From an uncultured Chromatiaceae bacterium (lineage in GTDB: Bacteria > Pseudomonadota > Gammaproteobacteria > SZUA-140): a stretch of DNA of 64,000 nucleotides. Both the position numbers and the translations under genes were made by a program. Location of the stretch: assembly GCA_964605155.1 (NCBI GenBank), contig CAZSAK010000016.1, forward strand, positions 2,935-66,934. Reading direction: 5' to 3'. This document shows, in pieces, positions 17,777 through 42,603 of this stretch (position 1 is the first letter of the stretch; each line of letters starts with the position of its first letter). The notes beneath the pieces were generated by a model. It worked only from the letters and a program-made list of their open reading frames with translations. It was not told the DNA's origin and made no database searches.

Positions 17777-17799
17777 AGTTAGTTGATGATCAGGTGTGA

Positions 17800-18515: not shown

Positions 18516-18818
18516 ATGGCCGGGATATCCATGACCGATACCGCTGTTCAGTGGTATATCTATATAGTCAGATGTTCGGATGACAGTCTATATACAGGTA
18601 TCACTACAGACATCAAACGGCGAATGCGGGCACACAACAATGATACCGGACCATCAACAGCAAAGTACACACGAGCAAGAAGACCGGTATATCTGGTATA
18701 CCAGGAAACAGCCACGTCAAGGTCACATGCAGCCAGACGTGAGAGCGAGATAAAAAACCTGAGCCGGCGGGATAAAGAACTCCTAATTGACGGATGTAAG
18801 GCTGGAAGTTACTTGTAG
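18516..18818 (+). CDS. GIY-YIG nuclease family protein (UPF0213/YhbQ-like).
   Basis: WYIYIVRCSDDSLYTGITTDIKRRMRAHN...ESEIKNLSRRDKELL. Confidence 0.75.
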   Translation: MAGISMTDTAVQWYIYIVRCSDDSLYTGITTDIKRRMRAHNNDTGPSTAKYTRARRPVYLVYQETATSRSHAARRESEIKNLSRRDKELLIDGCKAGSYL

Positions 18819-18883
18819 TTTCCACAAAGTTTATGGTGCCTGTATCCTGAAAGAAAATAATCGTATGTTCAATCGAATTTATA

Positions 18884-19777: not shown

Positions 19778-19835
19778 GATGCGAAACACAGATCATGAAA
19801 GTATGCCTTTCTGGATATTCGGCCAGGCAATACGG

Positions 19836-20663
19836 TTATTGTGACCTGCGGTAGAGGATCAACGTCATATCATCAGGTTTGGATGGCTGGTCTATGGATG
19901 GGTGCAGCATACGATTATTACATTCCTCGATGAGCGATGTTGATGCCGCCTCCAGGGAACCCTTACGGGTACGCTCAATAATTTCACTCATCAATAAATT
20001 ATCGAATAGTCCATCAGTTGCAAGCACTACCGTATCGTAACGGGCGAGTGTCAAAGCCGGTCCGACTTCGATGTGCATTTCAGAACTCCCCAGCATGTTG
20101 GATACAAGATGGCGTTCTTCATGATGGATAGCTTCATCTTCATCAAGAATACCAGCCTGGACGGCGTAACCAACAGGGGAATGTGAAGTAGTCTGGAGTT
20201 TGATCTTACCTTTCTGACCGATAACAAGGATCATCGAATCACCTACATGATAAGGCCGAAGTATATTCCCGTTAATTTCAACTGCAGCCAATGTTGAGCC
20301 TGCGCCCACACCCAGGGAGTTGATCCTGAAACTGGCTTGCTCAATTCCATCAAGTATATTTTCACGTAATGATGAGTTCTGCAGGGAGGTGTTTTTTAAA
20401 GAACCATGAATCGATGTAATTGCCAATGCGGAGGCTTCCCTTGCAGAAGGCATTCCGCCCATACCATCGGCAACCACGAATACACCGGTGTGATTATTCA
20501 GGCAAAACAGGGCAGCCGAATCTTCATTTATCGTTTCCTTTTGTGGCGATCGATGCGTATATATGACAACCTCACCGGAACAACAGGTATGCATTTCACA
20601 TGAGGGCGCCATGTCGAAATTTGAATATATCTTGCTTTTCAGGACGGGGTGCGGGGCAGACAT
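19836..20663 (-). CDS. PP2C-family Ser/Thr protein phosphatase.
   Basis: NEDS...VADGMGG...TDGL...DD(M)T PP2C motifs. An alternative start at 20612 (MAPSCEMH...) is more typical in length. Confidence 0.8.
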   Translation of the reverse strand: MSAPHPVLKSKIYSNFDMAPSCEMHTCCSGEVVIYTHRSPQKETINEDSAALFCLNNHTGVFVVADGMGGMPSAREASALAITSIHGSLKNTSLQNSSLRENILDGIEQASFRINSLGVGAGSTLAAVEINGNILRPYHVGDSMILVIGQKGKIKLQTTSHSPVGYAVQAGILDEDEAIHHEERHLVSNMLGSSEMHIEVGPALTLARYDTVVLATDGLFDNLLMSEIIERTRKGSLEAASTSLIEECNNRMLHPSIDQPSKPDDMTLILYRRSQ

Positions 20664-20684
20664 ACAATTCTTGTTATAGTGATA

Positions 20685-21431
20685 TTATTGCCACTGCATG
20701 GTCTCGAGATATTCACGTAGTTGTCCTGCAGATCGGAATTTTTTCAGTATCAAGCTGCGTTTCAGTCCGCAACATATTGCCTTTATTTCGCTGGATTGCT
20801 TAAAGTAATGTTTCTGACCACCTATGGCATCATAAAAAATCCGGATGAGATCACAAACGTCATCATAAATATTGGCTCTTACCGGGGCCCCCCAGTGAAA
20901 CATATCAAGCAGTTTTAAATTATAACCAAGACCGTATTGCTGGATAATTATATTATCCATATGTAGATCACCATGGTATTCACCCATATGATGTATGTTT
21001 TCGATTCCCGATGCCAGTGCATGCAGCAGAAGCAGGCCATGAATTGCCGATATCCGTTTAGCCGGTTGTCGGTTGAGGTATGCGCTCATTATTTCACCTT
21101 CAACATAATCCGAGACCAGAAATGTTATCGGTATACGTTGGAAGATAATAGTTTCCTGGGTGAGATACTGGATCAAGATAGGACAGTGGCGGAGTTTATA
21201 CAGTTTGTTTGCGTAAAAACGTAATGCTGAATTATTAGGGTTTCTTTGCGGGAAAAAGAATTTCGCCGCACGCTCAATTCCGGTGATAAGTTCCCGGACC
21301 AGATAGACTTCACTTTCCCAGCCTTCTCCAAGTTTACCGATTACCTCGTACTTTTTTGCAAGTATACGGCCTGGCTGGAGGTTAAATGAATCGATGAATA
21401 TTTCTTTTCGATTTCTGGCCATTAGGGTCAT
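20685..21431 (-). CDS. Atypical protein kinase, RIO/Kdo-kinase-like fold (kinase domain only).
   Basis: G-loop GKLGEGWESEVY, lysine in AAKFF, catalytic loop HGDLHMDNIII (HGD type, as in RIO/Kdo/InaA kinases). Immediately upstream of the PP2C gene on the same strand. Confidence 0.65.
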   Translation of the reverse strand: MTLMARNRKEIFIDSFNLQPGRILAKKYEVIGKLGEGWESEVYLVRELITGIERAAKFFFPQRNPNNSALRFYANKLYKLRHCPILIQYLTQETIIFQRIPITFLVSDYVEGEIMSAYLNRQPAKRISAIHGLLLLHALASGIENIHHMGEYHGDLHMDNIIIQQYGLGYNLKLLDMFHWGAPVRANIYDDVCDLIRIFYDAIGGQKHYFKQSSEIKAICCGLKRSLILKKFRSAGQLREYLETMQWQ

Positions 21432-21615
21432 TATATATACGACTGATATAATTTTAAATACAGGTTATTCCGCGAAGGCATATTATCATACATAATATTA
21501 CATCCATGCCTGTATATAATGTTACAAATTGCATGTATCCAATCCCGACTAGATTAAGATCGGACAAAAGATATGGGAGAATGGAGATTGATATTAAAGA
21601 TAATTGAGGTGGAAT

Positions 21616-21879
21616 ATGACGAAATCGTTGTTTGATATAGATGAAATTCTCGAAAGCCTTAAACAACAGAGAGACGAACTCAAGTTGCAGCTTCAGCTTG
21701 CAAAGGCGGAAGCACGTGATGAATGGGAAAAAACAGAACATAAATTTGAGCAATTCAGGGGCAAAGCAGAAGCTGTGCGCGATGAAATCGGGGGAGCCTC
21801 AGAAGATGTGCTGGCCGCATTGAAAATGACAGCTGAAGAGATCAAGCATGGATATGACCGGGTTCGAAAAAAACTTTGA
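21616..21879 (+). CDS. Small coiled-coil protein (hypothetical), divergent from the kinase.
   Basis: GAGGTGG SD 8 nt upstream of the ATG. About 88 aa of charged heptad-like sequence (ELKLQLQLAKAEARDEWEKTEHKFEQFRGKAEAVRDE). Confidence 0.55.
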   Translation: MTKSLFDIDEILESLKQQRDELKLQLQLAKAEARDEWEKTEHKFEQFRGKAEAVRDEIGGASEDVLAALKMTAEEIKHGYDRVRKKL

Positions 21880-22390
21880 TCGAGACTAATGGAATTATTT
21901 GTATAAAAAACGGTGGAATTTATTGTGACCCCGTATAATAAGAAGGGCCGACTTTGGACGGCCCTGCAATCAAACCTCTATGCCCGGTTGCATCAAGTGA
22001 CGTAAATTATCCTGATCCTCTGAAATGGTTTTGTGATTCAGATTATAAATGATTGATGCCGTTTCCTATTCATTGGCGGAGGCGGATTTGTTATTGGTTA
22101 TTTTCTGGAGTGCGATTTTTTTCAGATATGCATGGATGATAGTGAAAATCCATCAGGGTATCCGTCATTGTATTGATAGGATTGGGCTATTCAATCATGT
22201 AATAGATACAAGTGCAGGTAATCCGAGAGTCCTATATGCGTTTATACCTTCTGAGTCACTGACAAAGGTCTCGGTGTAGTATGTAATCAGGCAATATGCC
22301 TTCTTCCCTCGTGTATGTATGAGGCACCATAGTTTACGTCACGATGAACACCCGCGACCCGGTCTTATGACGAGATAGGCCCTGATTACA

Positions 22391-22504
22391 TCAGGGAATG
22401 CCGGAAAGAATAAAAAAGGCTACGGCAAGTACGATGGGGACCGCAATGATTACATGAATAATGTCGCTTTTGCTGAATTTAATAGGCTTGTATTTACCAT
22501 GCAT
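22391..22504 (-). CDS. Candidate 37-aa single-TM small membrane protein.
   Basis: Strong SD GAGGAG 7 nt upstream of the ATG. MHGKYKPIKFSKSDIIHVIIAVPIVLAVAFFILSGIP. Not in the ORF track (<60 aa). Confidence 0.35.
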   Translation of the reverse strand: MHGKYKPIKFSKSDIIHVIIAVPIVLAVAFFILSGIP

Positions 22505-22749
22505 CTTGATAACTCCTCACAAATCAATTCTCGTGTTTATAACGATCGTTAATCTAAATCGTAAAGTAAGCATATTATTATAAACAGCTACTGGATTTCG
22601 CACCAAGGAAAGCATGCGCCGGTTGCCGATGGAATTTTGACGTATAATCCCTGCAGCTGTCTTATGTGTCCGGATAGGCTCTATATCCTTATAATAGCGT
22701 GGATTATGTGATATTCAAACTGTCGTCTGGTGTATCCATCTACCGTTTT

Positions 22750-23448
22750 TTAACGTCTACGAAACCGTGGGGGAGCGAACAAGCGCACTCCTTTGCGGCG
22801 AAACAATGGAATCATTGCCATGCCCATGGCAAATCCCCCGATATGCGCGCCAAAGGCCACACCGCCCTGGGTGCCGGAGAATACCGAGCTTATCAATTGC
22901 AGGACAAACCAGAATCCCAGCACAATGCCTGCTGGCAGTCGCATGGTATACAGAAAAAATCCCAGGGGAATTACAACCAGGATGCGTGCATGTGGAAACA
23001 AGAGTAAATATGCACCCAAAACCCCTGATATTGCGCCGCTTGCACCTACCATAGGTATGTCCGAGTGAGGGTCCGGGATGACCTGTGCGAAGACAGCTGC
23101 TGTTCCGCATAACAGATAAAAGAGGATGAACCGCCCATGGCCCATGACATCCTCAACATTATTACCGAAAATCCAGAGATAGAGCATATTGCCGATCAAA
23201 TGCAGCCACCCTCCATGCAGGAACATCGAGGTGAATATGGTAGCGACAGGGGGCACTATGGTCAGTTCGGGAGATAATGACTTGGAGTGAAACAACACTG
23301 AGGGGATTACTCCAAGGCTGAAGATCGATTGCTGTATGGCGGAACCCAGGGATACCTGCCATAAAAAAACTAATGTACAAAGTACAATCAGTGTAACTGT
23401 AACATATGGATTTAGATTCGTCGGGTTATCGTCGTGAAGCGGAATCAT
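22750..23448 (-). CDS. Rhomboid-family intramembrane serine protease.
   Basis: Six TM segments. GASGAISG (catalytic Ser) and AHIGGF (catalytic His). Confidence 0.85.
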   Translation of the reverse strand: MIPLHDDNPTNLNPYVTVTLIVLCTLVFLWQVSLGSAIQQSIFSLGVIPSVLFHSKSLSPELTIVPPVATIFTSMFLHGGWLHLIGNMLYLWIFGNNVEDVMGHGRFILFYLLCGTAAVFAQVIPDPHSDIPMVGASGAISGVLGAYLLLFPHARILVVIPLGFFLYTMRLPAGIVLGFWFVLQLISSVFSGTQGGVAFGAHIGGFAMGMAMIPLFRRKGVRLFAPPRFRRR

Positions 23449-23608
23449 TCTTCAATATTATTAATATAAAAGATGTATTCATAAAGCTGGATATATTAGC
23501 AGATAGAATTGTTAATTGACGGCTTTTCGTCAAGGAATATCACGAGAATACGATCACACAGGACTTTGAACATATATGAGGTGATGATCTATCACGAGGT
23601 ATATTGAA

Positions 23609-24010
23609 TTGCATAAGGCAGAGCAACGGGTTTTTGTTTACGGTACATTGCGCAAGGGCGGGGAAAATCATGCCTTACTGACCGGAAGTGAGAATCTCGG
23701 TATGGCCATGACGACCGGGAAATATACTATGCTTGATATGGGTGATTATCCGGCAGTTATTGATCAAGGTTTTCATGCCATCGTCGGAGAAGTTTATATG
23801 GTCTCCGGAGAAATCATAGCAAAACTCGATGTGCTTGAAGAATACCCGGATTATTATCAACGCATAATTATCTCCACTCCTTATGGTGATGCCTGGATAT
23901 ATGTGCTGAAAAATATGCCTGATCAACAGCTGCCCGAGGTCAATAGCGGTGATTGGATCGAGTACAAGATCCGCAGGTATGTTGGGATAAAGGATAAACC
24001 GGTATCCTGA
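23609..24010 (+). CDS. Gamma-glutamylcyclotransferase-like (AIG2/GGCT family) protein.
   Basis: VFVYGTLRKGGENHALL ... EEYP motif. Confidence 0.8.
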   Translation: MHKAEQRVFVYGTLRKGGENHALLTGSENLGMAMTTGKYTMLDMGDYPAVIDQGFHAIVGEVYMVSGEIIAKLDVLEEYPDYYQRIIISTPYGDAWIYVLKNMPDQQLPEVNSGDWIEYKIRRYVGIKDKPVS

Positions 24011-24130
24011 ACTAAACCAGCGATAGGCCTTACTCTTAGATGGACATGATGCAAGCAAACTAAAAAACTTAAGCTTGAGCGTCGCATTGCCGATAATATG
24101 GTGTAAGGAAAGCAGCATCATAGTGGCTTT

Positions 24131-24379
24131 ATGCAATACTCATATCCAAAACCGCAGGATGTGAATATCAGGATTCCAAGGCATTTAATCAAAGAGCGAT
24201 TCAATGCCGGTTTCCAGCATGCACTCCAAGGTGGTCAACTCAACAAAATAGAGCAGTTACGACTTTCGTTTCGTGAAGGTTATCGTGCCGGAAAACTGTA
24301 CCTGCGTGAATTGCGACGTTCACGTGGAATCCTGACATTCCCGGTACAAGGCAAATTAAAGATTAAAACTGCTATTTGA
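24131..24379 (+). CDS. Hypothetical basic protein, 82 aa.
   Basis: ORF with reasonable codon usage. No recognisable domain. Confidence 0.4.
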   Translation: MQYSYPKPQDVNIRIPRHLIKERFNAGFQHALQGGQLNKIEQLRLSFREGYRAGKLYLRELRRSRGILTFPVQGKLKIKTAI

Positions 24380-24484
24380 TCGCAGGGAACTGATTCTGAA
24401 TTGATATTTTGTAAGGTATTGTAATCAGCGTAGAAGATATCTATTCAATATACAGGACCTTTTGCAGTCTGGAATATGAATGTA

Positions 24485-25177
24485 CTATAAATGGATCCCG
24501 CATTCGGTTTTCGGAAAATTATTCCATCGACCACTACGATCATCGCCCGGTACAGTGCAATGTACACATCCTATCGATGAATAACCTTTCGCCACCAGCG
24601 GATGGAAAGGCAGATCATGATCCTTGATATACGCATCGCGTTCGTTCCTGGAGACGTCAATCAGCGGATAGAATTTGATTATATCATTACGATCTTCAAA
24701 GATATCCAGGGTTGAGCGATGGTCGCTTTGCCATCTCATCAGACCGGAAACCCATACATCATAATCTTTCTTTAAGGCATCAAGTGGCTCCACTTTATTA
24801 ATCGAGCAACACAGGTCCGGATCGCTTTTATAGGTTTGATCCTTTTCAGTGAATTCATGCTTCCAATCTTCAGCCCTGACATCAACAACATCAAGATTGA
24901 ATAATTCCGTCAGCCTGCGCTTGTATTCGAGTGTTTCCGGGAAATGGTATCCCGTATCAATGAAAAATATTTTTTGATCAGGTACGATCCTGGAGAAAAC
25001 ATGCAGCAAAAATGCAGATGTTGCAGCGAATGAAGAAGTGATCATCACCCTGTCGAGGGGGAAATCACTGTAAAGCTGACGCACACGCTCATCGATCGTT
25101 AGAGAATGATATTTTTCGTTCAGTGCCGCAACAGTGTGCTGCAGTTTATCATTATTCATTGCATTTTGTGGTGACAT
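24485..25177 (-). CDS. cysH: Phosphoadenosine phosphosulfate (PAPS/APS) reductase family protein, CysH-like.
   Basis: Collinear with E. coli CysH (ITSSFA..., FFIDTGYHFPETLEY, C-terminal ECGIHL). The track ORF extends to 25336; start MSPQNAM at 25177 is preferred. Confidence 0.7.
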   Translation of the reverse strand: MSPQNAMNNDKLQHTVAALNEKYHSLTIDERVRQLYSDFPLDRVMITSSFAATSAFLLHVFSRIVPDQKIFFIDTGYHFPETLEYKRRLTELFNLDVVDVRAEDWKHEFTEKDQTYKSDPDLCCSINKVEPLDALKKDYDVWVSGLMRWQSDHRSTLDIFEDRNDIIKFYPLIDVSRNERDAYIKDHDLPFHPLVAKGYSSIGCVHCTVPGDDRSGRWNNFPKTECGIHL

Positions 25178-25387
25178 AAAATCCGGTGAATTGCTGAGAA
25201 AAGTATCAGGCTGTATCGAACTGATTAAGCGTGCCCATTCTAACAAAAAATCCAGATTTTGTCTATAGTTAGCAATGCTGACTGAATGATTCGCGTGCGA
25301 GTCTGAATTCGATATTTGGTTGATTAATATAATCAAATATTCTGCCGATCTTGAATTTTAGGTCTAACGATATATTCGAGCACACGG

Positions 25388-26632
25388 ATGAAGACGAACA
25401 AACTGGTCAATGCCTCTATTTTGAAATCACTGGCACCGATCCGTGATATTCCCGAGAATGCCGTTGACGATCTTGCCGATCATACTTATTACGAAACACT
25501 TACCAAGGACGAATACCTGTTCACCAATGGTACAAATGATCCCTGGGCGTACTATATTTTAAGCGGAAATATTGATCTGATATATCCTGATGGCAGAGTG
25601 GAAGTATTATCGGGCGGCAGCACCGAGTCACAAGAACCGTTAGCGGATCTTAAACCGAGGCCTGCATCAGCGAAGGCCGCTAATGATGTCATTTTTATTC
25701 GCTTTAAATCCGATGATATAAGCGCCTTAAAGATTTCAGCTATTACAGAGTGCGTTTCGGTTGAAAGATCTTCAATTAATGAGGAGGACATAGAAGCTGA
25801 GCTTCTAAAAGAAATAGATCAAGCAAACAAAACGGACAAGCTGATCGTGCCCGGTTTTCCGGACATCGTCATGAAGGTGCAGGATGCCGTCAAGGATCCG
25901 GATGGTGATACTAACATGATCATCAGGCTGATACAGGCAGATCCATCGCTTGCCGCGCGAATCGTGCGTGTGGCCAATAGCCCAATATACCGTGGCCAGA
26001 ACACCATCACGAATTTACGTATGGCGGTTTCACGGCTCGGGATCAAGGTGACACGAGAAACTGTAATGAGTTTTTCTTTACAACAGGTCTTTACCGGCGA
26101 TATCCCCGCTTTGCACCAGAAAATGAATGAATTATGGCGATATAGCACAATGGTTGCTGCGATCAGCGCTATTTTGGCTCGTCTTGATCCAAAACTGGAT
26201 GCGGAACGGGCCTGGCTCGCCGGGTTGATACACAATATCGGCGCATTGCCGGTGCTTGCATATGCCGAAAATTACCCTCAATTGAGGGAGAATACTGAAC
26301 TTCTCGATACGATGATCTGTAAACTGAGCAGAAGGATCGGTGAGTCGGTGTTGCGTCGATGGCAATTTGATAGTGAATTCGTCACGGTCGTCAGGGATTG
26401 CCGTGACTGGATGCGTGATCCCGATCCCAGCACCGATTATTGTGATATCGTCCTGTTGGCCCAGTTATTTGCCTATCTCGAAACATCATCGATGGTGGAA
26501 TATCCCGCTATCAACATGGTACCTGCATACTCGAAACTCCCGTTTGGAAGACTCGGCCCAAAGATGACTGTCAAAGTGCTGAAGGAGGCCCGTGCTTATA
26601 CAGGCAAGATTCAACAAATCCTCCAGGGCTGA
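25388..26632 (+). CDS. HDOD-domain signalling protein with an N-terminal cNMP-binding-like region.
   Basis: C-terminal HDOD motifs (FPDIVMKVQDAV...DPSLAARIVRVANSPIYRGQNTITNLRMAVSRLG...LAGLIHNIGALP). Confidence 0.8.
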   Translation: MKTNKLVNASILKSLAPIRDIPENAVDDLADHTYYETLTKDEYLFTNGTNDPWAYYILSGNIDLIYPDGRVEVLSGGSTESQEPLADLKPRPASAKAANDVIFIRFKSDDISALKISAITECVSVERSSINEEDIEAELLKEIDQANKTDKLIVPGFPDIVMKVQDAVKDPDGDTNMIIRLIQADPSLAARIVRVANSPIYRGQNTITNLRMAVSRLGIKVTRETVMSFSLQQVFTGDIPALHQKMNELWRYSTMVAAISAILARLDPKLDAERAWLAGLIHNIGALPVLAYAENYPQLRENTELLDTMICKLSRRIGESVLRRWQFDSEFVTVVRDCRDWMRDPDPSTDYCDIVLLAQLFAYLETSSMVEYPAINMVPAYSKLPFGRLGPKMTVKVLKEARAYTGKIQQILQG

Positions 26633-26974
26633 TTGTGGGATAGCCCATAAAAAACAAAAAAAACAATATAAATCATTATGATATAACATTACACGGCGGC
26701 CATGGAGCTATAGATCCATGTCATTCTGCCGATATAGATATGTCCTTTATTGCATGGTCTGTTAGCTATCAGGTTGAGTTGTTGACGTCCGGACATACCG
26801 AAATACGGGTCTATGATCATGCAGGACCTTGGCAAGGAAAATAACAATTCATCCGATCATAAAGGCTAACGTGTATACAATACTTTTTATTGTTGGCCCG
26901 TGTAGTAAAGTATCGGTTTAACATCGTACAAATGTCATATCCATAACAATAATATTCCTTAGCGAGGTAAAGCC

Positions 26975-27310
26975 ATGGCTGAAAGACGCAAGTACAGACG
27001 AGAAGAAGTATTTGTTGATGCAGAGATATCATGTCCTGATTTCGGTAAATCCATCATGCAAGTACGTGATTTAGGTATGGGAGGTATCTATCTTGAAGCG
27101 GATGATGGACGTTTTCCCGCAGTTGGGACTGAGGTTGATGTCACATTACTGGTCCATATGGGTGGTGAGGACATTCATACTCTCAAGTCACGCGTTACCC
27201 GTGTGGATGCCGATGGGATTGCCTTGAAGTTTCTAAATGTTGATGTGCGATATTTATCTTTCCTTGAAAGGCTTCTGGATTACAAGGCAACCAAAATCAT
27301 TGTTGCCTGA
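26975..27310 (+). CDS. PilZ-domain c-di-GMP-binding protein.
   Basis: RRKYRREEV (RxxxR) and DLGMGGIYL (D/NxSxxG) motifs. Confidence 0.8.
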   Translation: MAERRKYRREEVFVDAEISCPDFGKSIMQVRDLGMGGIYLEADDGRFPAVGTEVDVTLLVHMGGEDIHTLKSRVTRVDADGIALKFLNVDVRYLSFLERLLDYKATKIIVA

Positions 27311-27399
27311 TACCCGATAACAGTCCTGAAAAGGCTGGCATATTAGCCGTGGTTGTACTGCGATTCTGGGTATTGTGTGACAGTATCCGGATTTATTCG

Positions 27400-28107
27400 T
27401 TAGTTGATGTGGCACTCTTCCCCAATCTTTTCCGGATAAATATCTCCAAAGTCAGTTACCTGTTTATATTCCGCAGCAGGGTCGATCTCTCCACTCCTTA
27501 CCAACCAGATGGTATGCATGCCGGCCTGGTGAGCTGCCTCAAGTTCTTGCTTGATATCCGATAAAAACAGGCAGTTCTTCGGTTTGACAGCTATCTCCTC
27601 GCTAATTCGCTGATAGGAATTCACAGAAGTTTTTGATCCGATCTTGGTATCGAAATAACCGCTGAAAAGCGGGTTCAGATCTCCATATTCAGTATTTCCG
27701 AAGAGAAGTTTTTGAGCATGTATGGAGCCTGAAGAAAAAACGTAGAGTCTGATATCATTATCGTTCCATTTTTTGAGATTGTGGACCGCATCTTCATAAA
27801 TGTGTCCATTGAAATGCCCATTCAGGTATCCCTGTTCCCATAATAATCCCTGTATCGTCTTGAGTGGTGTGATCTTTTTGTCATCGTCAATCCATTGAAT
27901 CAATGAACGGATTATTTGATTTATATCAGGGGATTCCTCACCGATAATATTCGCTGCTTCGTCAAGAGCCTGTCGAACTAGGATATCGTTTTCATGAGCG
28001 TGGATAAATTGCTCAATATTGTCTCGGGCATATGGAAAGAGGGTGTCCTTGACAAAGGCAAGCGATGAGGTTGTACCTTCAATGTCGGTAATGATGGCTT
28101 TTATCAT
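27400..28107 (-). CDS. mtnC: Enolase-phosphatase E1 (methionine salvage, HAD family).
   Basis: ITDIEGTTSS...; HAD motifs. Operon with mtnD and mtnB. Confidence 0.85.
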   Translation of the reverse strand: MIKAIITDIEGTTSSLAFVKDTLFPYARDNIEQFIHAHENDILVRQALDEAANIIGEESPDINQIIRSLIQWIDDDKKITPLKTIQGLLWEQGYLNGHFNGHIYEDAVHNLKKWNDNDIRLYVFSSGSIHAQKLLFGNTEYGDLNPLFSGYFDTKIGSKTSVNSYQRISEEIAVKPKNCLFLSDIKQELEAAHQAGMHTIWLVRSGEIDPAAEYKQVTDFGDIYPEKIGEECHIN

Positions 28108-28664
28108 GAATGTTGTGCGACAAACTCGTCAAAATCAGGGTAACGGGTTGCAATATCATTACCGGTAAAGTTGGCTTGCCAGCCGTCAGGCGTGGTGAAA
28201 AACCGGATACATTTGAATTGTGGGTGTTCGCCCATGTCAAACCAATGTGCTGTGAGGGCCGGGACTGTGATGAGATCACCCTTTTCACATAGAACAATGA
28301 ACACATGACCGTCGACATGCAAATAAAAAAGCCCTCGGCCATCTACAAAAAAGCGCACTTCGAAATCATCGTGCGTGTGTTCTGCAAGGAACTTTTGCCT
28401 GAATGTGGCTTTTTCCGGATGATCTGGATGCAGGCTGACCACATCGATGGTTTTAAAACCATATTGTTCAACAAGGCTGTCAACTGAAGAGCGAAATGCC
28501 TCGATAATTTGTTCCTGGGATAAGCTGTTGTTGAGTTCTTTTTCAGCGGTCCAGCGTTCGAATCCGACGTGGATCCCTGCAAGTCTGCGCGCGATTTCTG
28601 CCGGATCTGTTGTAGTTTCAAAGGCATCACTGGCCGTATCGGTATATATGCTTAATACGCTCAT
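28104..28664 (-). CDS. mtnD: Acireductone dioxygenase (ARD, cupin).
   Basis: Cupin His/Glu metal ligands (HxH...E...H). Collinear with ARD. Confidence 0.85.
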   Translation of the reverse strand: MSVLSIYTDTASDAFETTTDPAEIARRLAGIHVGFERWTAEKELNNSLSQEQIIEAFRSSVDSLVEQYGFKTIDVVSLHPDHPEKATFRQKFLAEHTHDDFEVRFFVDGRGLFYLHVDGHVFIVLCEKGDLITVPALTAHWFDMGEHPQFKCIRFFTTPDGWQANFTGNDIATRYPDFDEFVAQHS

Positions 28665-29317
28665 ACTCTATCATACCCCTTTAACTTAAGTTCGCATTCA
28701 AACATGAATTCAAATGCTTCCAGATAACGCAAGGTTTCCTGGATTGATCGACCCCATGTATACAAACCATGTCCGGCAATCAGGAATCCGAAAATGGGAG
28801 GATTGTTTTCAAGATACATTACTACCTTATGTGAGAGACGTGCAATGTCCTGATCGTTCAGGAAGATTGGAATGCAGATTGAGGTTTCATGTGTGCTGAT
28901 CCGGTCAAAGGCCTTCAGGATCTCGTAGCCGCTCAATCTCAGTTCGTTATTATTTAATCGCGATATCAGGGTTGCATTGATTGAATGAGTATGCAGGACG
29001 GTATACGTTTCCGGGAAGTGTGTGTAGATCACTGTATGTAGTAAAGCCTCGGCGGATGGTTTCCTGTTATCCACCGCTCGTCCTTGGAAGTCGATGGTCA
29101 TTATATCTTCCGGAGTCAGCGCACCTTTATCCCTGCCTGAGACGGTAATGGCAATTTTGTCATGATCATATCTGGCAGAGAAGTTGCCGCTGGTTGCTGG
29201 TACCCAGCCTCTGGCATAAAGCGACTTGCCTGCATCAACCAGGGCTGATGCTATATGCTGCAATGTTTTTACTGATTGATCCATAAATTGGGTAATCTGG
29301 AAAATCGTGAAATACAA
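28661..29317 (-). CDS. mtnB: Methylthioribulose-1-phosphate dehydratase (class II aldolase/adducin family).
   Basis: Class II aldolase fold motifs (GNFS..., HTHS). Confidence 0.85.
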   Translation of the reverse strand: MYFTIFQITQFMDQSVKTLQHIASALVDAGKSLYARGWVPATSGNFSARYDHDKIAITVSGRDKGALTPEDIMTIDFQGRAVDNRKPSAEALLHTVIYTHFPETYTVLHTHSINATLISRLNNNELRLSGYEILKAFDRISTHETSICIPIFLNDQDIARLSHKVVMYLENNPPIFGFLIAGHGLYTWGRSIQETLRYLEAFEFMFECELKLKGYDRV

Positions 29318-29545
29318 TCTGGTTCATTTTGATTGTAATCTGCCGGTCTTGGCGTGACAATCACGTTATAGTTCTATAGGAGAATTGCGAATATTCATGA
29401 ATACGTTAAAACGTACTGTTGATCAGGTTTATCCCTGATAGTTCCAGTATGATTGGATGCGATGATCATGATGTTTGTCTATTCGGAAAACGCCATCTGT
29501 CTGATGTTTGAGGTGGATCTGAGGTAAGTCTACGAGGATTTTTAA

Positions 29546-29848
29546 ATGAATACACGGACTTCAACAAATTACACACAGCAATTTGATATCAGGGCAACCA
29601 TTGAACGTCTCACAAATGAAGGGAGACTGGATGAATGCTTTGCGAATATGCTGGGAGCAATCACACATATTGAGGGCGTATGTAATCTTTTGCAGGGACT
29701 GGAAGAAGACGGTGTATTATTTCCAAGTTCACAAGATGAATTCAAGCAGGAGTTCGCTGAACTGATCAGTTCAATAAAGGCGCTGATCAATAATGGCATA
29801 TATCCTGATCTCGTGCATATAAATCAGGAAGGTGACGCTGTCAATTAA
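29546..29848 (+). CDS. Hypothetical acidic protein, 100 aa.
   Basis: ORF in an AT-rich accessory stretch. No known motif. Confidence 0.4.
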   Translation: MNTRTSTNYTQQFDIRATIERLTNEGRLDECFANMLGAITHIEGVCNLLQGLEEDGVLFPSSQDEFKQEFAELISSIKALINNGIYPDLVHINQEGDAVN

Positions 29849-30113
29849 AGAAAGCGCATGGGACGATGATCCCATCGATTGTTTAGCTCATCGGAAGATT
29901 TCAGCTAAAAAACTGCATCGTCACGATGCATGGAGTCGGATACGTGGCACTGGCTCATAAAATAATCGTAACACATTGTAATTAAATGATATTTAATCAA
30001 GCCTGGATCTTAAATTTCCCTCTGTTGTGTCGATAAACAATCATAGTGGCACCTATAAGGCGTCGTTACCCAATAAAGAGATAAACTGAAGAATCACACG
30101 GGATGGGATAACT

Positions 30114-30440
30114 ATGTTTGAAACAGAGACAGAAGAAGTAATCGAGGTACCCAAGTGGGATGTAGCGTTGGAGGCCTTGTTGAGGGAAGAATATGTCAGC
30201 GTTGGCAGGATGTTAATGATTGAAGATTTTCACAAACTCTCCATGGAATACTCGATTCGATTTGATGATATCATGGATACGGTTTTTGCAATGACGCTCG
30301 AAGGCAAGTGGGTATACCGCAATGTTGACGGATTTGACACTGAAATCACCCAGGATATGGTCGATGGTTTATATGTCAATGCCCGTCTTCATGAAAATGA
30401 TGTCAGAGGATTTAATGGGGGGTGGCTGCCGGCGGCATGA
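30114..30440 (+). CDS. Hypothetical acidic protein, 108 aa.
   Basis: ORF with an AAGG-like SD region. No known motif. Confidence 0.4.
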   Translation: MFETETEEVIEVPKWDVALEALLREEYVSVGRMLMIEDFHKLSMEYSIRFDDIMDTVFAMTLEGKWVYRNVDGFDTEITQDMVDGLYVNARLHENDVRGFNGGWLPAA

Positions 30441-30539
30441 GAGAGCCCCAAGATCAAATATCGATGATCCACAGTATCTGTTTTAACAGGTAGTTTGTCC
30501 CTGAGGATCGTCCTGTACTCAACCTCGCGAGATTTTTCA

Positions 30540-30836
30540 TTATCTGAAGTCCCGCGGTGGCAGTTGTTCATATAACCACATCAACTGGTCCACGTTAGTC
30601 ATGACGGTGTCAACATAGCTAATACAACATACCGTTGCGGTACGCATTTTCCTGTATAAACATCCGATTTCATAAAACGGATCCGGTATGCCGTTTAATT
30701 CATGCCACCCAGGCTCTGGAAGCACGGTCCGCTTTGAAACGAATTTGACATTGCCATCACAAAGTACCTGTAAATCGAAACCCGTGATGACATTTCCCGA
30801 AAACAGTGGATCTCCAGCGACTGGCTGAGGTGACAC
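30540..30836 (-). CDS. Hypothetical protein, 98 aa.
   Basis: Convergent with the previous ORF. No known motif. Confidence 0.35.
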   Translation of the reverse strand: MSPQPVAGDPLFSGNVITGFDLQVLCDGNVKFVSKRTVLPEPGWHELNGIPDPFYEIGCLYRKMRTATVCCISYVDTVMTNVDQLMWLYEQLPPRDFR

Positions 30837-31328
30837 CTAAAACCGAGATGTATTTTCAAGTGTTAAATGTCCAGGGTTGTCCAATATCGAACAGTTCGCA
30901 GTTAATCGCTCATGTCCAGTCCATACAAATAATCAGTATTAACCCGACGGACTATTCCTCTGTCCGTATTCTTACCAGTCATCGGAATTGACATAAAATT
31001 CCGGATGCTTATTTGAGTAATGAAGGGTTAGGCGATATCAGGAAGGATATATAAATTTAGGTATATTATAACATAATAAAATACTAATATTTAATTTGCC
31101 GATCCCCTCAAACATCTACATCCCTTTTACTTTCAATTCACAGGGTTAATCGATCGAAATATTTTAACTTACTGTTATTATAAGTTTAATATTAAAAACA
31201 TGATTATCTTCGTCCTGCGTATCCTGTTATAATATTACAAAATCATAATAAGGGGGCAGGGCATATTACAGCTTGGAAAAGGGAACAGCCTGACTTAATA
31301 TGTCGCTAAACCCGAGGTAGGGATATTT

Positions 31329-31691
31329 ATGAAGATATCAACCGTATCTTTACAGTGTTATCAGCTGCGCACATCTCCTCATTTCAGGCATCGCAATTAT
31401 ATTACGTATCTCATAATACCGCTGCTGATAGTCATGTCTTTCTTCATCAGTAACCGGTGTCGAGCGGATGAAAAGTACGATGACTTAAAGTCCCGCCTGG
31501 AAAACTACACCGGTATTTACAAGCACAAGCTTGATGACGGATTTACTATAAGAGGCTGGCAGTTAACGCCCCATATCTATCTGGGACAGACTAGGACATT
31601 TGGTAACAATAGTTACGGCCTGCTAGTCGATAAAGGTGATTATGCCTACGGTCTGATTGACCAGCAGATTTCTATACTAAAAAGTTTCTAG
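31329..31691 (+). CDS. Hypothetical membrane-anchored protein, 120 aa.
   Basis: One TM/signal-anchor (YLIIPLLIVMSFFI). GAGG upstream of the ATG. Confidence 0.45.
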   Translation: MKISTVSLQCYQLRTSPHFRHRNYITYLIIPLLIVMSFFISNRCRADEKYDDLKSRLENYTGIYKHKLDDGFTIRGWQLTPHIYLGQTRTFGNNSYGLLVDKGDYAYGLIDQQISILKSF

Positions 31692-31955
31692 TCCGGTCAT
31701 CTAACCTTCCTGTATTTTTATGTTTTTATCCCAGGGCAGCGCCAGAGGGGTGTTGCCCGTCATAATACCTGTTCCCGTTTATGCTCTTCTCCCGAGATTG
31801 AGTCATTGTTTGCTGTACCAGGAAAATTGACCCGCTCAAGGAGTATCTTGTGCGGATATTTTATGAGTATTGGGGCCGATCGGCTGGAATGATAGAGTGG
31901 ATACAAGTAAATTATCATATTTTTGGTAATCCAATGACCATTTGAAAGGAAATAG

Positions 31956-32600
31956 ATGAGTACACGTCGAATTCTGGTCCTGAACCCCAAGGGAGGATGT
32001 GGAAAAACCACCCTGGCAGTCAATATCGCCAGCTTTTATGCCAATCAAGGTAAATCTGTCGTATTGGCCGATTTTGACCCACAGGGATCAGCGATGGAGT
32101 GGATTGAGGCGCGTCCTGAATCATACGCCACGATTAAGAGGGTCCCGGCCTGGAAAGATGATGTGCGTCTGCCAAGGGACGTCGATTATGTGGTTATGGA
32201 TGCTCCTGCGGCCGTGCATAGCAGAGAGATCAGCAATCTGTTAAAACGTGCGGAATCTGTAGTTATACCCGTCCTGCCTTCACCTATTGACATCCGCGCT
32301 GCTGCCCATTTCATCCAAGATATCTTGCTCAATAAAAGGGTGTCGCATAAAAATACTAAACTTGCCGTGGTGGCCAATCGTGTTCGTGAAAATACTATCG
32401 TCTACCAAAAACTGCAACGGTTCCTCAAGCGCCTGGATATCCCGTTTGTTGCCGTATTCCGTGATACTCAAAATTATATCCGGGCCGCTGATCGGGGGAT
32501 AAGTATTTTTGAGATGGCACCTTCAATGGTTACCCAAGACCTTGATCAGTGGAGATCGTTGACCAGATGGTTAAACAGTAAGCGCAGTTTACCCGGTTAA
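31956..32600 (+). CDS. Orphan ParA/ParF-like (type Ib, about 210 aa) deviant Walker-A ATPase.
   Basis: KGGCGKTT deviant Walker A, DFDPQGS, VVMDAPA, PSPID. The size and architecture are like plasmid ParF/McdA-type positioning ATPases. Confidence 0.8.
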   Translation: MSTRRILVLNPKGGCGKTTLAVNIASFYANQGKSVVLADFDPQGSAMEWIEARPESYATIKRVPAWKDDVRLPRDVDYVVMDAPAAVHSREISNLLKRAESVVIPVLPSPIDIRAAAHFIQDILLNKRVSHKNTKLAVVANRVRENTIVYQKLQRFLKRLDIPFVAVFRDTQNYIRAADRGISIFEMAPSMVTQDLDQWRSLTRWLNSKRSLPG

Positions 32601-32646
32601 TGTCGATGTTAATTAATGTCAGAATAGTATTTTTGCAAATACTGAG

Positions 32647-33045
32647 TTGTATCCAAACATGACCAGTGGAAAACAAAAAATGGTAAATCGGCCAAGACCT
32701 GTCATGGTGTTTATCTATGTCATTGCTGGAGTTGTCATGATTGCCGCATCAGCCTGTTCCGATATATCTGGCTCGAGGGATGCCGTATGGTTATACGGTG
32801 TATGGGAGTTGACCCATAATCCGGATCATGATGATTCCGACACGCTGGTGTTCAAGGATGACGGTACAGTGAAAGTGCAAACGGAAGACGGACGGGAGAT
32901 CGACGGCAAATATGCGATTAATGACAATCAGTTGAAAATGACCCTTGCAACACCACGGGATGTGATTGACGTTGAATTCACTATATCAAAAGATAAATCC
33001 AAATTGATATACAGAAACGGTGCCTATTATACCAGGCAACACTAA
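32647..33045 (+). CDS. Lipoprotein (hypothetical), 132 aa.
   Basis: Signal peptide with lipobox AASAC. Beta-rich periplasmic domain. Confidence 0.6.
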   Translation: MYPNMTSGKQKMVNRPRPVMVFIYVIAGVVMIAASACSDISGSRDAVWLYGVWELTHNPDHDDSDTLVFKDDGTVKVQTEDGREIDGKYAINDNQLKMTLATPRDVIDVEFTISKDKSKLIYRNGAYYTRQH

Positions 33046-33094
33046 CCGATCCTGAAGAGCGTAGCTGATTACCTAAGTGAAACTCAGATTCCTT

Positions 33095-33277
33095 TCAGCG
33101 GGAAATGTTGTTGGTTAGACGCTCGGTAACGATTTCGAATAATTCCGTTGGCGTGCTGAATTTGCGCGGAAATAATGAATTATCAATGGTAGCTACCCAG
33201 TAATCAGGTTCGCATCCATGCTTGAATTTCGGGTGTGCCTCAACTGATTTACCGCATATCTTTCTTTTGACAACCAT
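33095..33277 (-). CDS. Hypothetical small protein with a possible Cys/His metal site.
   Basis: 60 aa (KICGKS...HPKFKHGC). Confidence 0.25.
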   Translation of the reverse strand: MVVKRKICGKSVEAHPKFKHGCEPDYWVATIDNSLFPRKFSTPTELFEIVTERLTNNISR

Positions 33278-33647
33278 AATTATTCTCTCTCTTATTGAAT
33301 GGTGGCCTTGCGCAATAACGGGATGAACGGTTATTGCGCCGTCGATATTAGGTTATTGATAATTCCAGAGTAACATAGTGTTAACCAGTAATATAGAATT
33401 AAATTATTGGTTATTGTTCTAACTGTTAATAATCCCGACATTTATAAGCGCAGTTCCAGGCCGCATCGCTATCTTATTGAATATATAATACTTAAAATAT
33501 ACCGAGGGTGGACCGGTTACTGATTTGTCTTCCAAGCTAAATACTCTATCCGTCAGATTATGAGATTACTTCGATATACCCATGCCAGAGTTCCTGGCTG
33601 ATCATATGACCGTTTACCGGGATGGTTCTGTTTTTTATTAAGCGCAT

Positions 33648-34382
33648 ATGATATTTCCTGAGAAGATCTGGATATATATTAGCGGGGAGCTGTCTTTGCA
33701 ACAAATCAAATATTGGCGGCAGTGTATTGCAATAACAGGTCTGTTGATACAGGGCACCGGTTATGCAGTGGATTTGGCATCCGTCGAATCACCGGGGACG
33801 GAGGCCGCACTACTGATACAAAGGCTTGAGACGGATCTGAAGCTTGACCAATCGATCTCTCAAACCAGGATCAACCGTGTCGGCCTGATTATCCTTGAAC
33901 CAGCCAATTCCGCGGTTCAAGCGGGCTTACAGATCGGGGCACTGGAAATACATCAAAGCGATAATTCGATAACGGCAGGCCTGGATCTGACCGGCAATTA
34001 CATCGGTATCATGTTTCGCACGAACCTGTACCGTAGCAACCATTCTGCGATACGTCTGGACGGAGGCTATACCTATAATGAGGCTGACAAGCATACAAAT
34101 GATCAGCAAATAAAATACGACTGGCATGAATTTTTGTTAAGAGCCCTGTTTGAATGGAAATTTGGGGATTTTAATATGTCTCTCGGTAGATATACGCAAA
34201 TAATAAACGGAGATGAGACTGCATTTGGTGTGGTAACACGCACTCGGGAAATTGAGCAGGTGGATAAGGCCGGTACCCGTCTTGAAGTTGATTACAGGGT
34301 CGATGTTACCGGGAAGATCGGTATCCAGCTTGACAATGGGAGTCGCGATGCGGTTGCTCTGATATTTGCACGGGAATTTTGA
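33648..34382 (+). CDS. Putative outer-membrane beta-barrel protein.
   Basis: N-terminal signal region, alternating amphipathic beta-strands, C-terminal aromatic (…FAREF). Confidence 0.55.
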   Translation: MIFPEKIWIYISGELSLQQIKYWRQCIAITGLLIQGTGYAVDLASVESPGTEAALLIQRLETDLKLDQSISQTRINRVGLIILEPANSAVQAGLQIGALEIHQSDNSITAGLDLTGNYIGIMFRTNLYRSNHSAIRLDGGYTYNEADKHTNDQQIKYDWHEFLLRALFEWKFGDFNMSLGRYTQIINGDETAFGVVTRTREIEQVDKAGTRLEVDYRVDVTGKIGIQLDNGSRDAVALIFAREF

Positions 34383-34518
34383 GTTTCGGGCAGATGACCG
34401 CGATCGTGATTTCAGTATGCATCCTTATCAAGACGAGATTGTGTAATCAATCATATGAGTTTAATATTTCATTCAGGTTGCAGATAATTATTTACGAGTC
34501 TAAACGGGAGAAAAGCAC

Positions 34519-34728
34519 ATGGGTGATCATGTATATAAAATGATAGAACTGACGGGCTCTTCATCCAAGAGTATAGAAGATGCTGTTGAAAATGCCGTTG
34601 TCCGGGCAGCCAAGACGGTGCGGAATATGCGCTGGTTTGAGGTTATCGATACACGTGGACATATCGATAACGGCAAGATCAATTACTGGCAAATCACTAT
34701 CAAGGTTGGATTTACGTTGGAGGATTAA
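34519..34728 (+). CDS. Dodecin (flavin-binding) family protein.
   Basis: [24 protein letters not shown]...WFEV...G.I..WQ dodecin signature. 69 aa. Confidence 0.85.
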
Positions 34729-34792
34729 TACCGAGGTTATACCTTTACCAGGGCTGCCCGGCCCATCCTGCAGAATGTCCAAAAGGGCTGCA

Positions 34793-35074
34793 TCAATCAT
34801 TACGAGAAGTGACTTCTACCAGATGATATCCAAACTGGGTATGAATCGGACCGTGCACCTTGCCGATCTCTTCATTGAAGACAACTTGATCGAATTCCTT
34901 TACCATCTGTCCCGGACTGAATTCACCCAGGTCACCGCCACGTCTTCCCGATGGGCACAATGAATGTTTCTGGGCGATTTCAGCAAAATCCGCACCGTTT
35001 TCGATTTCTGTTTTCAGTTGTTCGCAGTCTTCTTGTGTGGAAACGAGGATATGTCGTGCGCTTGCGGTTGCCAT
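34793..35074 (-). CDS. ppiC: Parvulin-type peptidyl-prolyl isomerase PpiC.
   Basis: Collinear with E. coli PpiC (ARHILV...GADF..IA.KHS.CPSGRRGGDLGEF..GQMV..FD.VVF...HTQFGYH). Confidence 0.85.
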   Translation of the reverse strand: MATASARHILVSTQEDCEQLKTEIENGADFAEIAQKHSLCPSGRRGGDLGEFSPGQMVKEFDQVVFNEEIGKVHGPIHTQFGYHLVEVTSRND

Positions 35075-41504: not shown

Positions 41505-42603
41505 ATGCTCGAATTGAACCCCGTTTATGAGCGTATCAAGGATATGCAGGGACGACTTGATGTCCTGAGGAGGTACCTTTGACGTTGATACCAAACAGGA
41601 ACGCCTGACCGAGGTTACGCGTGAACTCGAGAATCCTGCAATATGGGAGAATACTGAGAAGGCACAATCCCTGGGCAGAGAGCGCTCCCAGTTGCAAGAT
41701 GTCGTTGCGGCCATTGCAACCTTGACACAAGGTTTGATGGACGCTCATGCATTGCTTGAACTTGCTGAAGAAGAGCAGGATGAGGAGACAAGCCGGGAGG
41801 TCGCATCTGATCTCGAAACTCTGGAAAAGAAGCTGGCAGGACTTGAGTTTCGCCGGATGTTTTCCGGTGAAATGGATGCCAAAAATGCCTTCCTGGATAT
41901 TCAGGCCGGTTCCGGAGGAACGGAGGCCCAGGATTGGGCGGAAATGCTGTTGCGGATGTATTTGCGTTGGGGGGAGCGGCGCGGCTTTGCAACCGAACTG
42001 ATAGAGGTATCACCCGGAGAGGTGGCGGGGATTAAAAGCGCGACCATCAGGGTGGAAGGGGAATATGCTTATGGATGGTTGCGCACCGAAACGGGCGTAC
42101 ATCGGCTGGTACGCAAATCTCCGTTCGATTCGGGAAACCGTCGTCATACCTCTTTTGCTGCCGTGTTCGTCTCACCGGAGGTCGAAGATGACATCGACAT
42201 CGATATCAATCCGGCTGATTTAAAGGTCGATACCTATCGTGCCAGCGGTGCGGGAGGGCAGCATGTGAATCGTACGGATTCCGCTATTCGCATTACCCAT
42301 ATGCCGAGCGGTATCGTGGTACAGTGCCAGAGTGATCGTTCGCAACACAAGAATCGCTCAACTGCGATGAAACAGCTCAAGGCCAAGCTCTACGAACTGG
42401 AAATGCAGAAACGCACCGAACAGCAACAGGCGCTGGAGGATAGCAAGTCCGATATTGGCTGGGGTAGCCAGATTCGGTCATATGTGCTGGATCAGTCACG
42501 CATCAAGGATCTGCGCACCGGTGTTGAAACCGGTAACACACAGGCCGTGTTGGATGGGGATCTGGATGAATTTATCGAGGCGAGTTTGAAAAGTGGAATC
42601 TGA
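41505..42603 (+). CDS. prfB: Peptide chain release factor 2, expressed via programmed +1 frameshift.
   Basis: Frame 0 reads [25 protein letters not shown] then TGA at 41580-41582. The +1 frame continues [12 protein letters not shown]... with SPF and GGQ motifs. The frameshift site is AGGAGGTACCTTTGAC. Confidence 0.9.
41558..41585 (+). other. prfB programmed +1 ribosomal frameshift site (internal SD AGGAGG, slippery CUU U, in-frame UGA C).
   Basis: Seen directly in the sequence. Same organisation as E. coli prfB. Confidence 0.85.

Follow-up and report, generated by a model that had tools for sequence, protein, structure and literature searches.

The open reading frame (ORF) at positions 31956–32600 of a 64,000-nucleotide (nt) stretch of DNA from an uncultured Chromatiaceae bacterium (the whole of which we call the window in the following) encodes a 214-residue (aa) ATPase of the ParA/MinD superfamily. 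We regard it as probable that this protein is an intact, functional and chromosomally inherited orphan ATPase with a ParF-like (small, type Ib-like) fold, whose partner is encoded elsewhere. Its identity, taken together with its non-linkage to the genes that surround it, can be held with high confidence. Judged by its alignments, it represents a distinct orthologous group, which is widespread in Gammaproteobacteria and combines a KGGCGK[ST] box with a QW-x5-WL-x-S[KR][KR]S-x-P motif. Members of the superfamily organise chromosomes, plasmids, carboxysomes, flagella, chemoreceptor arrays and division sites, and each newly assigned cargo has informed our view of bacterial cell organisation. The initial annotation of this locus, made from the sequence alone, had described the ATPase as a ParF-like orphan flanked by envelope proteins within an AT-rich island, and had considered either a positioning module or the remnant of a plasmid partition system.

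In Pfam, the 214-aa protein matches CbiA (E-value 7e-18) and AAA_31. The top curated NCBI model is NF041546, ‘ParA family partition ATPase’, with 136.5 bits, under its cutoff of 180. Models for other members of the superfamily trail far behind: MinD (TIGR01968, minD_bact) reaches 47.4 bits against a cutoff of 212.9 and BcsQ 37 against 158, while RepA and VirC1 likewise score far below NF041546. By sequence, the nearest solved protein is ParF of plasmid TP228 (4dzz, E-value 2.5e-16, residues 6–190). By structure, an AlphaFold2 (AF2) model of the monomer, built on 66 homologues (predicted local distance difference test (pLDDT) 85, predicted template modelling score (pTM) 0.87), retrieves ParF (4e07) as its top Foldseek match with a template modelling score of 0.78, ahead of Soj, MipZ, McdA (6non), MinD and FlhG; the Foldseek probability is 1.0 for ParF, Soj, MipZ, MinD and NifH. 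The label ‘ParF-like’ of the initial annotation is thus borne out by both sequence and fold.

The residues expected of an active ATPase of this superfamily are retained. NPKGGCGKTT (residues 10–19) is a deviant Walker A box of the form xKGGxxK[ST] with its signature lysine, and the Walker A' and Walker B aspartates are present within a SIMIBI-type fold. Across the 66 homologues, K12, G13, G14, C15, G16, K17, D39 and D41 are invariant and D82 is nearly so; N141 and R142 are likewise invariant or nearly so, as is most of the IPVLPSPID stretch. Further invariant positions in alignments of 20 and 66 homologues are W49, R53, R169 and a QNYI motif. The ATPase sequence is, moreover, identical on about ten metagenome contigs.

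The orthologous group is marked by its C-terminus. While KGGCGK[ST] is found at 92 of 92 loci, [QE]W-x5-W is found at 84 of them, and most members end in WL-x-S[KR][KR]S-x-P. The C-terminus of the window protein reads DQWRSLTRWLNSKRSLPG and thus carries the full motif, in which D195, Q198, W199, W205 and S208 are invariant in the alignments of 20 and 66 homologues. Against 1.84 billion representatives clustered at 50% identity, a profile search yielded 440 clusters with an E-value of 1e-30 or better; among the best 150 of these representatives, 118 have W-x5-W, and only about eight keep the basic SKRS-type tail. This small SKRS-tailed set is, on its sequence motif, the orthologous group of the window protein, and the group forms one contiguous block in a neighbour-joining tree. 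More distant W-x5-W relatives occur in Betaproteobacteria (Ralstonia). In the AF2 model, the helix at residues 189–207 is confidently modelled and the seven-residue tail (208–214) poorly. As the ParF alignment spans nearly the full length of both proteins, the modelled helix probably belongs to the ParF-like core; and as only seven residues follow this last core helix, the protein has no detachable amphipathic, membrane-targeting helix of the MinD type.

Relatives of the ATPase are numerous and chromosomal. A word-indexed search of a 5.8-billion-cluster protein collection led to 8000 scored candidates, 7536 of them with an E-value of 0.001 or lower; the best 120 are nearly all about 207–231 aa long and 58–100% identical to the window protein, and come mostly from metagenome bins of Gammaproteobacteria. 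In GTDB species genomes, at least 553 relatives were confirmed. The best 80 of these, at 45–63% identity, stem from Chromatiales, Thiohalophilus, Sedimenticola, Sulfuricaulis, Woeseiaceae, Steroidobacteraceae (Povalibacter, Steroidobacter), Arenicellales, Porticoccaceae, Legionellales and a few others; the homologue of Sulfuriflexus mobilis is 63% identical. Homologues of 45–80% identity lie on chromosomal contigs of many Gammaproteobacteria, amid housekeeping genes, and the window itself is chromosomal core that encodes recJ, prfB, lysS, sdhAB, nadB, rseB, degP, lepA and era.

Clustering of all ORFs within ±6 kb of the ATPase gene at 85 non-redundant loci revealed two types of synteny. In the first, the gene immediately upstream, which has the same orientation, encodes UbiD (30 loci), and those downstream encode a Fre-like Fer2/FAD/NAD reductase (35 loci), HemY (34 loci) and HemX/D/C; in the second, found at about 27 loci, a divergent DapF-DUF484-XerC-HslVU cluster lies upstream and a short-chain dehydrogenase/reductase-type (SDR) epimerase gene downstream. 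Two independent look-ups gave matching housekeeping synteny. In most genomes the gene is situated between ubiD and fre/hemY or beside dapF/xerC, and in the lineage of the window it is situated in a patch of lineage-specific small genes. Only the housekeeping synteny recurs: no recurrent partner gene was found within ±6 kb at the 85 loci, and a Pfam scan of the immediate downstream gene at 81 loci detected no recurrent ParB, ParG or ribbon-helix-helix family (Epimerase 16, Fre-type domains 9–10, HemY 7, DUF4136 5, DUF5640 2). The orphan status that the initial annotation had proposed from this one locus thus holds here and across the family: the ATPase gene is inherited vertically on chromosomes, and both its partner and its cargo would be encoded elsewhere, not beside it.

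In the window, the locus is laid out as follows:

About 30469–30899, minus strand: remnant of a decayed gene for a cyclic-nucleotide-binding (cNMP-binding) protein (tblastn with the intact sister-species protein)
31329–31691, plus strand: upstream neighbour, a 120-aa small beta protein, apparently exported or anchored (ORF)
31878–31927, plus strand: conserved non-coding block, 30–80 nt 5' of the ATPase start codon (three-species alignment)
31956–32600, plus strand: orphan ParF-like ParA/MinD ATPase, 214 aa (ORF; AAGGA ribosome-binding site 6 nt upstream)
31989–32012, plus strand: Walker A box KGGCGKTT, residues 12–19 (sequence reading)
32538–32594, plus strand: C-terminal motif D-L-D-QW-RSLTR-WL-N-SKRS-L-P, residues 195–213 (alignment)
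32647–33045, plus strand: downstream DUF5640 lipocalin-like lipoprotein, 132 aa from TTG (public gene calls: ATG 32659, 128 aa)
33095–33277, minus strand: gene for a conserved 60-aa cytoplasmic protein, convergent with the ATPase and lipoprotein genes (dN/dS 0.04–0.07)

The three plus-strand ORFs of the initial annotation, including that of the 214-aa ATPase with its KGGCGKTT box, are all present, although the lipoprotein probably starts at ATG 32659. In comparisons with two sister species, in which synonymous sites are saturated, all four genes are under purifying selection, with ratios of non-synonymous to synonymous substitutions (dN/dS) of 0.04–0.07 for both the ATPase and the 60-aa gene, about 0.14 for the 120-aa gene and 0.12–0.18 for the lipoprotein gene.

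Family and structure searches assign the ATPase to ParA/MinD with a ParF fold and the lipoprotein to DUF5640, and return neither a family nor a fold match for the 120-aa protein. The latter has one N-terminal hydrophobic helix with a possible A-x-A-type cleavage site (by eye), an N-terminal tail that is not conserved, and a conserved small all-beta domain at residues 63–118 (AF2, pLDDT about 80) with the C-terminus ...ILKSF; it matches nothing in Pfam or NCBIfam, and its AF2 model matches no fold in the PDB. Labelled a transmembrane protein in the initial annotation, it is more aptly called an exported or N-terminally anchored protein, not a polytopic membrane protein. The lipoprotein contains a domain of the DUF5640/lipocalin-like type, which scores 34.2 bits (cutoff 28.5), and the cysteine of its lipobox, [AS]-A-C, is conserved in three species, as expected from its initial description as a lipobox lipoprotein. 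The 60-aa protein, with its basic N-terminus MVVKRKICGK..., is conserved as strongly as the ATPase and has no family match in Pfam, NCBIfam or PADLOC. Further downstream, positions 33648–34382 of the plus strand encode a 244-aa protein with an N-terminal hydrophobic segment and no family match, which ends in ...ALIFAREF; by eye, this C-terminus looks like an outer-membrane beta-barrel signature.

The composition of the region does not set it apart. Its GC content (29318–34518, 42.7%) is no different from that of its surroundings (43.3% in the 17–35 kb stretch; 44.4% in the mtn housekeeping genes), so that there is no AT-rich island of the kind first described. Of the two flanks that had been singled out as strongly AT-rich intergenic regions, 30841–31328 is clearly low in GC (34.8%) and overlaps the cNMP-binding gene remnant at its 5' end, whereas 33050–33650 (39.6%) is not intergenic, as it contains the conserved 60-aa gene on the minus strand. 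On a larger scale, positions 17000–35000 form an 18-kb stretch of lower GC content (about 43% against 50–55% in much of the flanking sequence), which includes mtnBCD, a 3'-phosphoadenosine-5'-phosphosulfate (PAPS) reductase gene and the patch of small ORFs. Gene content at this position has changed between species. The intact 153-aa cNMP-binding protein of a sister species (L006) aligns to the window by tblastn as two separate pieces, which differ in frame and are 37% and 48% identical, and the window lacks DUF6763, DUF6524, response-regulator/TPR and HATPase genes that sister species have here; the region therefore shows gene loss and flux.

Within this region, the block at 31878–31927 aligns across three species despite their saturated synonymous sites (GATYGGCTGGAWTGAT...AGTAAAKTA) and is probably the ATPase's own promoter or operator; a scan for promoter and terminator consensus sequences gave counts not clearly above those of shuffled sequences (12 against 9.2±3.3 and 5 against 2.2±1.4, respectively). 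No gene for ParB or ParG was found close to the ATPase gene. Centromere-like elements were not found either, in agreement with the initial annotation: between 30800 and 33700, a repeat search and Tandem Repeats Finder (TRF) detected no iteron-like arrays, just two-copy repeats at chance level, and canonical parS sites are absent from the whole window at up to three mismatches. One weak, low-scoring 12-nt repeat of 2.1 copies is located at 34576–34600.

Given these data, it is very improbable that the 120-aa protein and the lipoprotein act as adaptor or cargo of the ATPase, possibly joined by the 244-aa protein, in a new envelope-positioning system, a version of the undescribed positioning module that the initial annotation had considered. 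The order of 120-aa, ATPase and lipoprotein genes is kept in three sister species, the gap between the latter two is short (20–141 nt), and another lipoprotein gene (DUF4136) directly follows the ATPase gene at five to seven further loci. Yet the families of the 120-aa protein, the lipoprotein and the 60-aa protein are confined to the window's own clade (L001–L009, ATPase at least 78% identical), and none of the neighbour families is found at the other 80 of the 85 loci, so that the trio does not co-occur beyond this clade. They are also tiny, with 10 clusters for the 120-aa and 3 for the 60-aa family in the 5.8-billion-protein collection, compared to hundreds of 50% clusters for the ATPase. 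Furthermore, the mature 120-aa protein and the lipoprotein appear extracytoplasmic, and the sole candidate for a cytoplasmic tail, the N-terminus of the 120-aa protein, is unconserved; as both appear exported, a cytoplasmic ATPase could not reach them. The ATPase gene also has its own conserved upstream block, and DUF5640 has no relation to DUF4136. The three genes therefore do not form a conserved module; the neighbours are lineage-specific genes, and that a lipoprotein follows the ATPase in each of two clades is probably a coincidence. The DUF4136 lipoprotein gene, unrelated to the DUF5640 gene of the window, lies 1–47 nt after the ATPase gene in one subclade (L017, L029, L032, L034, L035).

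The plasmid origin considered for the gene can be judged against plasmids themselves. A tblastn search of 72,556 plasmids matched 4987 records, all of them less than 60% identical to the ATPase, and the close relatives are chromosomal; close homologues beside ParB or ParG on plasmids, the finding that the initial annotation had named as decisive against its own reading, were thus not encountered. The best match (38.7%), on Ralstonia replicons of 1.6–2.3 Mb, keeps the C-terminal Trp motif and sits between cobQ-like and panC-like genes (ORFs read by eye); the Ralstonia records are unannotated, as are those of the Indioceanicola hits. Genuine plasmid ParAs are 33–39% identical, most of the best-ranked alignments end near residue 190, and the C-terminal motif of the family is missing. 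In three controls (pXAC33, pOCEGK01 and the IncC plasmid of C. freundii), a small gene, annotated as ParG in one, as ParB in another and as hypothetical in the third, overlaps parA by 4 nt, with a replication-initiator or DNA-binding gene nearby; in a neighbour-joining tree, these control proteins fall outside the whole chromosomal family. They share size and motifs with the window ATPase as members of NF041546, but differ by the overlapping parG/parB-like gene, and the window ATPase stays below the family cutoff. Likewise, ParF of TP228 (4dzz, 4e07, 5u1g) resembles the window ATPase in its size (about 205–215 aa), its lack of an N-terminal DNA-binding domain, its deviant Walker A box with signature lysine and its proline-rich IPV(L/T)PSP(I/L)D stretch. 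However, identity is only about 24%; ParF is encoded on a plasmid together with parG and iterons, the window ATPase on a chromosome and with neither partner nor repeats, and the QW-x5-WL-x-SKRS-x-P C-terminus of the latter is beyond the reach of sequence alignment to ParF. The ATPase therefore conforms to type Ib proteins in its size (about 200–220 aa) and in lacking an N-terminal helix-turn-helix domain, as seen in the end-to-end Foldseek alignment with the 205-aa ParF, but not in curated score, adjacent partner gene, iterons or plasmid location.

That the gene is the remnant of a type Ib partition cassette from an integrated plasmid or integrative and conjugative element, which has lost parG/parB and the centromere, is accordingly improbable in the extreme. 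Such a remnant would account for the size and fold of ParF, for ParA_partition as the top NCBIfam model, and for the surrounding small ORFs without assigned function and the nearby pseudogene, but not for the strong purifying selection on the ATPase, nor for the orthologues in housekeeping synteny across orders, the close relatives all lying on chromosomal contigs. Plasmid ParAs are less than 40% identical and lack the C-terminal motif, the locus shows no integrase, tRNA-flanked boundary, repeats or compositional break, and PADLOC returned nothing above noise. A link of the ATPase to defence systems was also considered and rejected, given that PADLOC gave only noise-level P-loop matches. We further regard it as improbable that the protein is an accessory chromosome-segregation ParA, that is, a second Soj-like ATPase that uses the canonical ParB-parS near oriC. 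It is indeed chromosomal, vertically inherited and highly conserved, with intact ParA-type motifs and no dedicated partner present. However, its fold and size are ParF-like, its sequence alignment to Soj is limited to residues 1–55, there is neither parS in the window nor an oriC-proximal context, and the family-specific C-terminal motif argues for a dedicated interaction. The hallmarks of a chromosomal ParABS system are missing as well, with no parB gene and no parS within the 64 kb.

Nor, almost certainly, is it an alpha-McdA-type ATPase that positions carboxysomes and is encoded apart from the cso operon. Among the carriers there are many sulfur-oxidising autotrophs, but others, such as Povalibacter, Steroidobacter and, for the distant homologue, Ralstonia, are presumably heterotrophs, and McdA (6non) is a weaker fold match than ParF. 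Alpha-McdA is also a small proteobacterial ParA-type ATPase with the signature lysine, and some of its genes are found away from the cso operon; the invariant W49 may match a conserved central Trp reported for it (PMC8359340). It is, however, defined by an adjacent disordered McdB that ends in V/I-WPD (PMC8359340), whereas no ORF ending in WPD was found after the ATPase at 91 loci or anywhere in the window, which has neither an adjacent McdB nor cso genes. A phosphoribulokinase-like gene lies directly upstream of the ATPase gene at five loci and an alpha-carbonic-anhydrase-like gene at three (by eye; loci including L066, L074, L078, L080, L022 and L039). These genes hint at a weak association of the locus with carbon fixation in some lineages, which the McdB test does not support.

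How, then, might the orphan ATPase work? In the scheme established for the superfamily, an ATP sandwich dimer docks on a matrix, and partner-stimulated hydrolysis leads to cargo positioning (PMC11407121). By analogy, ATP binding would drive the formation of a sandwich dimer via the signature lysine, and this dimer would dock on a matrix, most likely nucleoid DNA, via the basic C-terminal residues R200, R204, K209 and R210. A partner encoded elsewhere, with a basic N-terminal peptide, would then stimulate hydrolysis and release, and the cycle would generate a gradient or ratchet that positions or partitions a cargo. We propose this nucleoid ratchet tentatively, as a plausible mechanism that falls somewhat short of being probable. 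We favour the nucleoid as the matrix, since the protein ends in a packed helix that bears conserved Arg/Lys residues and is followed by a short basic tail; in the superfamily, basic C-terminal regions indicate use of the nucleoid, and membrane-targeting helices use of the membrane (PMC11407121).

Several points weigh against the view of the protein as a functional, nucleoid-based positioning ATPase. It scores below the cutoff of the NCBI ParA_partition model (136.5 against 180), and literature searches found no publication on any member of the subfamily, the closest lead being Hn0255 of Halothiobacillus neapolitanus (see below). The mechanism rests on family analogy, with DNA binding as a prediction, and the model is of a monomer, so that the basic residues are not placed relative to the matrix-binding face of the dimer. 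Lastly, in a paralogous clade of about 45% identity, the same W-x5-W helix is directly followed by a transmembrane helix and a C-terminal domain, which hints that part of the wider family works at the membrane.

The protein could instead be a MinD-like membrane switch, which docks on the inner membrane or an envelope-spanning complex via the Trp/Leu and Lys/Arg residues of its C-terminus and organises an envelope machine. In at least five representatives of 50% clusters (about 45% identical), the W-x5-WL helix leads directly into a linker, after which come one transmembrane helix and a conserved domain (about 75 aa), for which there is a sub-threshold hint of HofP/PilP (E-value 0.01, 16 bits against a cutoff of 24), and the C-terminal helix of the window protein appears amphipathic by eye (W199, L202, W205 and L206 versus R200, R204 and K209). 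Still, we consider a membrane switch unlikely. The fused proteins form a separate clade outside the window's orthologous group, and the window protein itself has no transmembrane segment, with just seven residues after a helix that is modelled as packed core. The MinD and BcsQ models stay far under their cutoffs (47 against 213 and 37 against 158), a search for a split copy of the C-terminal module of the fused proteins, in the window and in the vicinity of 91 homologues, detected none, and there is no envelope machinery among the conserved neighbours. With MinD and FlhG, the ATPase shares the superfamily fold and the logic of an ATP-dimer switch, but not the detachable amphipathic membrane-targeting helix at the C-terminus; neither minC/minE nor flagellar genes were found as its neighbours.

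The fused paralogues deserve a description of their own. In P0174, P0178, P0179, P0183 and P0185 (also P0212 and P0240; loci L094–L097), which share about 45% identity with the window protein, W-x5-WL is followed by a linker and a transmembrane helix, and P0174, P0178, P0179 and P0185 end in the conserved domain of about 75 aa (W-L-G-V...DGW-V...G-D-AVL...RL-L). This domain has no significant match in Pfam or the PDB, and the contigs that encode these proteins are too short for gene context. To our knowledge, no membrane-anchored ParA-type architecture of this kind has been described. A further relative of the ATPase, P0208, carries a fused response-regulator receiver domain at its C-terminus (Pfam Response_reg, E-value 3e-27). 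Together, the transmembrane- and receiver-fused paralogues suggest that, in the wider family, ATP-dependent patterning is coupled to a complex that spans the envelope or acts in signalling. It is conceivable, though rather doubtful, that the KGGCGK/QW-x5-WL-x-SKRS-x-P group is a vertically inherited positioning ATPase of Gammaproteobacteria with a partner and cargo of a kind new to ParA/MinD, possibly associated with the envelope. If so, the gene in the window would be an ordinary member of a new system rather than part of a new module with its neighbours.

Pulianmackal et al. (PMC10241942) found several ParA/MinD ATPases to be encoded in about one third of bacteria, and the ATPase described here fits the known category of orphans among them, while the definition of the subfamily appears to be new. 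The closest published lead, Hn0255 of H. neapolitanus, was left unstudied because of its poorly conserved neighbourhood (PMC10241942). Like the window protein, this chromosomal ParA/MinD ATPase of a sulfur-oxidising gammaproteobacterium has no assigned cargo, and the neighbourhood of its gene is poorly conserved; unlike the window protein, it was loosely grouped with ‘nitrogen metabolism’ neighbours (PMC10241942), none of which are seen here. Hn0255 may be an orthologue of the window ATPase. With its sharp signature and its cultured carriers, such as Sulfuriflexus mobilis and Povalibacter uvarum, the subfamily makes the question of its cargo directly testable. For the window alone, the outcome is mostly corrective, in that the envelope neighbours, the ‘island’ and the plasmid remnant do not hold up.

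Two features elsewhere in the window may be mentioned in addition. The sequence AGGAGG TAC CTT TGA C at 41568–41583 is located about 110 nt upstream of an ORF (41692–42603) whose match to release factor RF2 sets in only at position 35 of the PCRF domain profile; this sequence resembles the classical site of programmed +1 frameshifting in prfB. Moreover, positions 6519–8334 and 19836–21431 encode proteins with Sel1 and ankyrin repeats, as well as a Ser/Thr kinase that adjoins a PP2C phosphatase; such eukaryote-like domains are common in host-associated Gammaproteobacteria.

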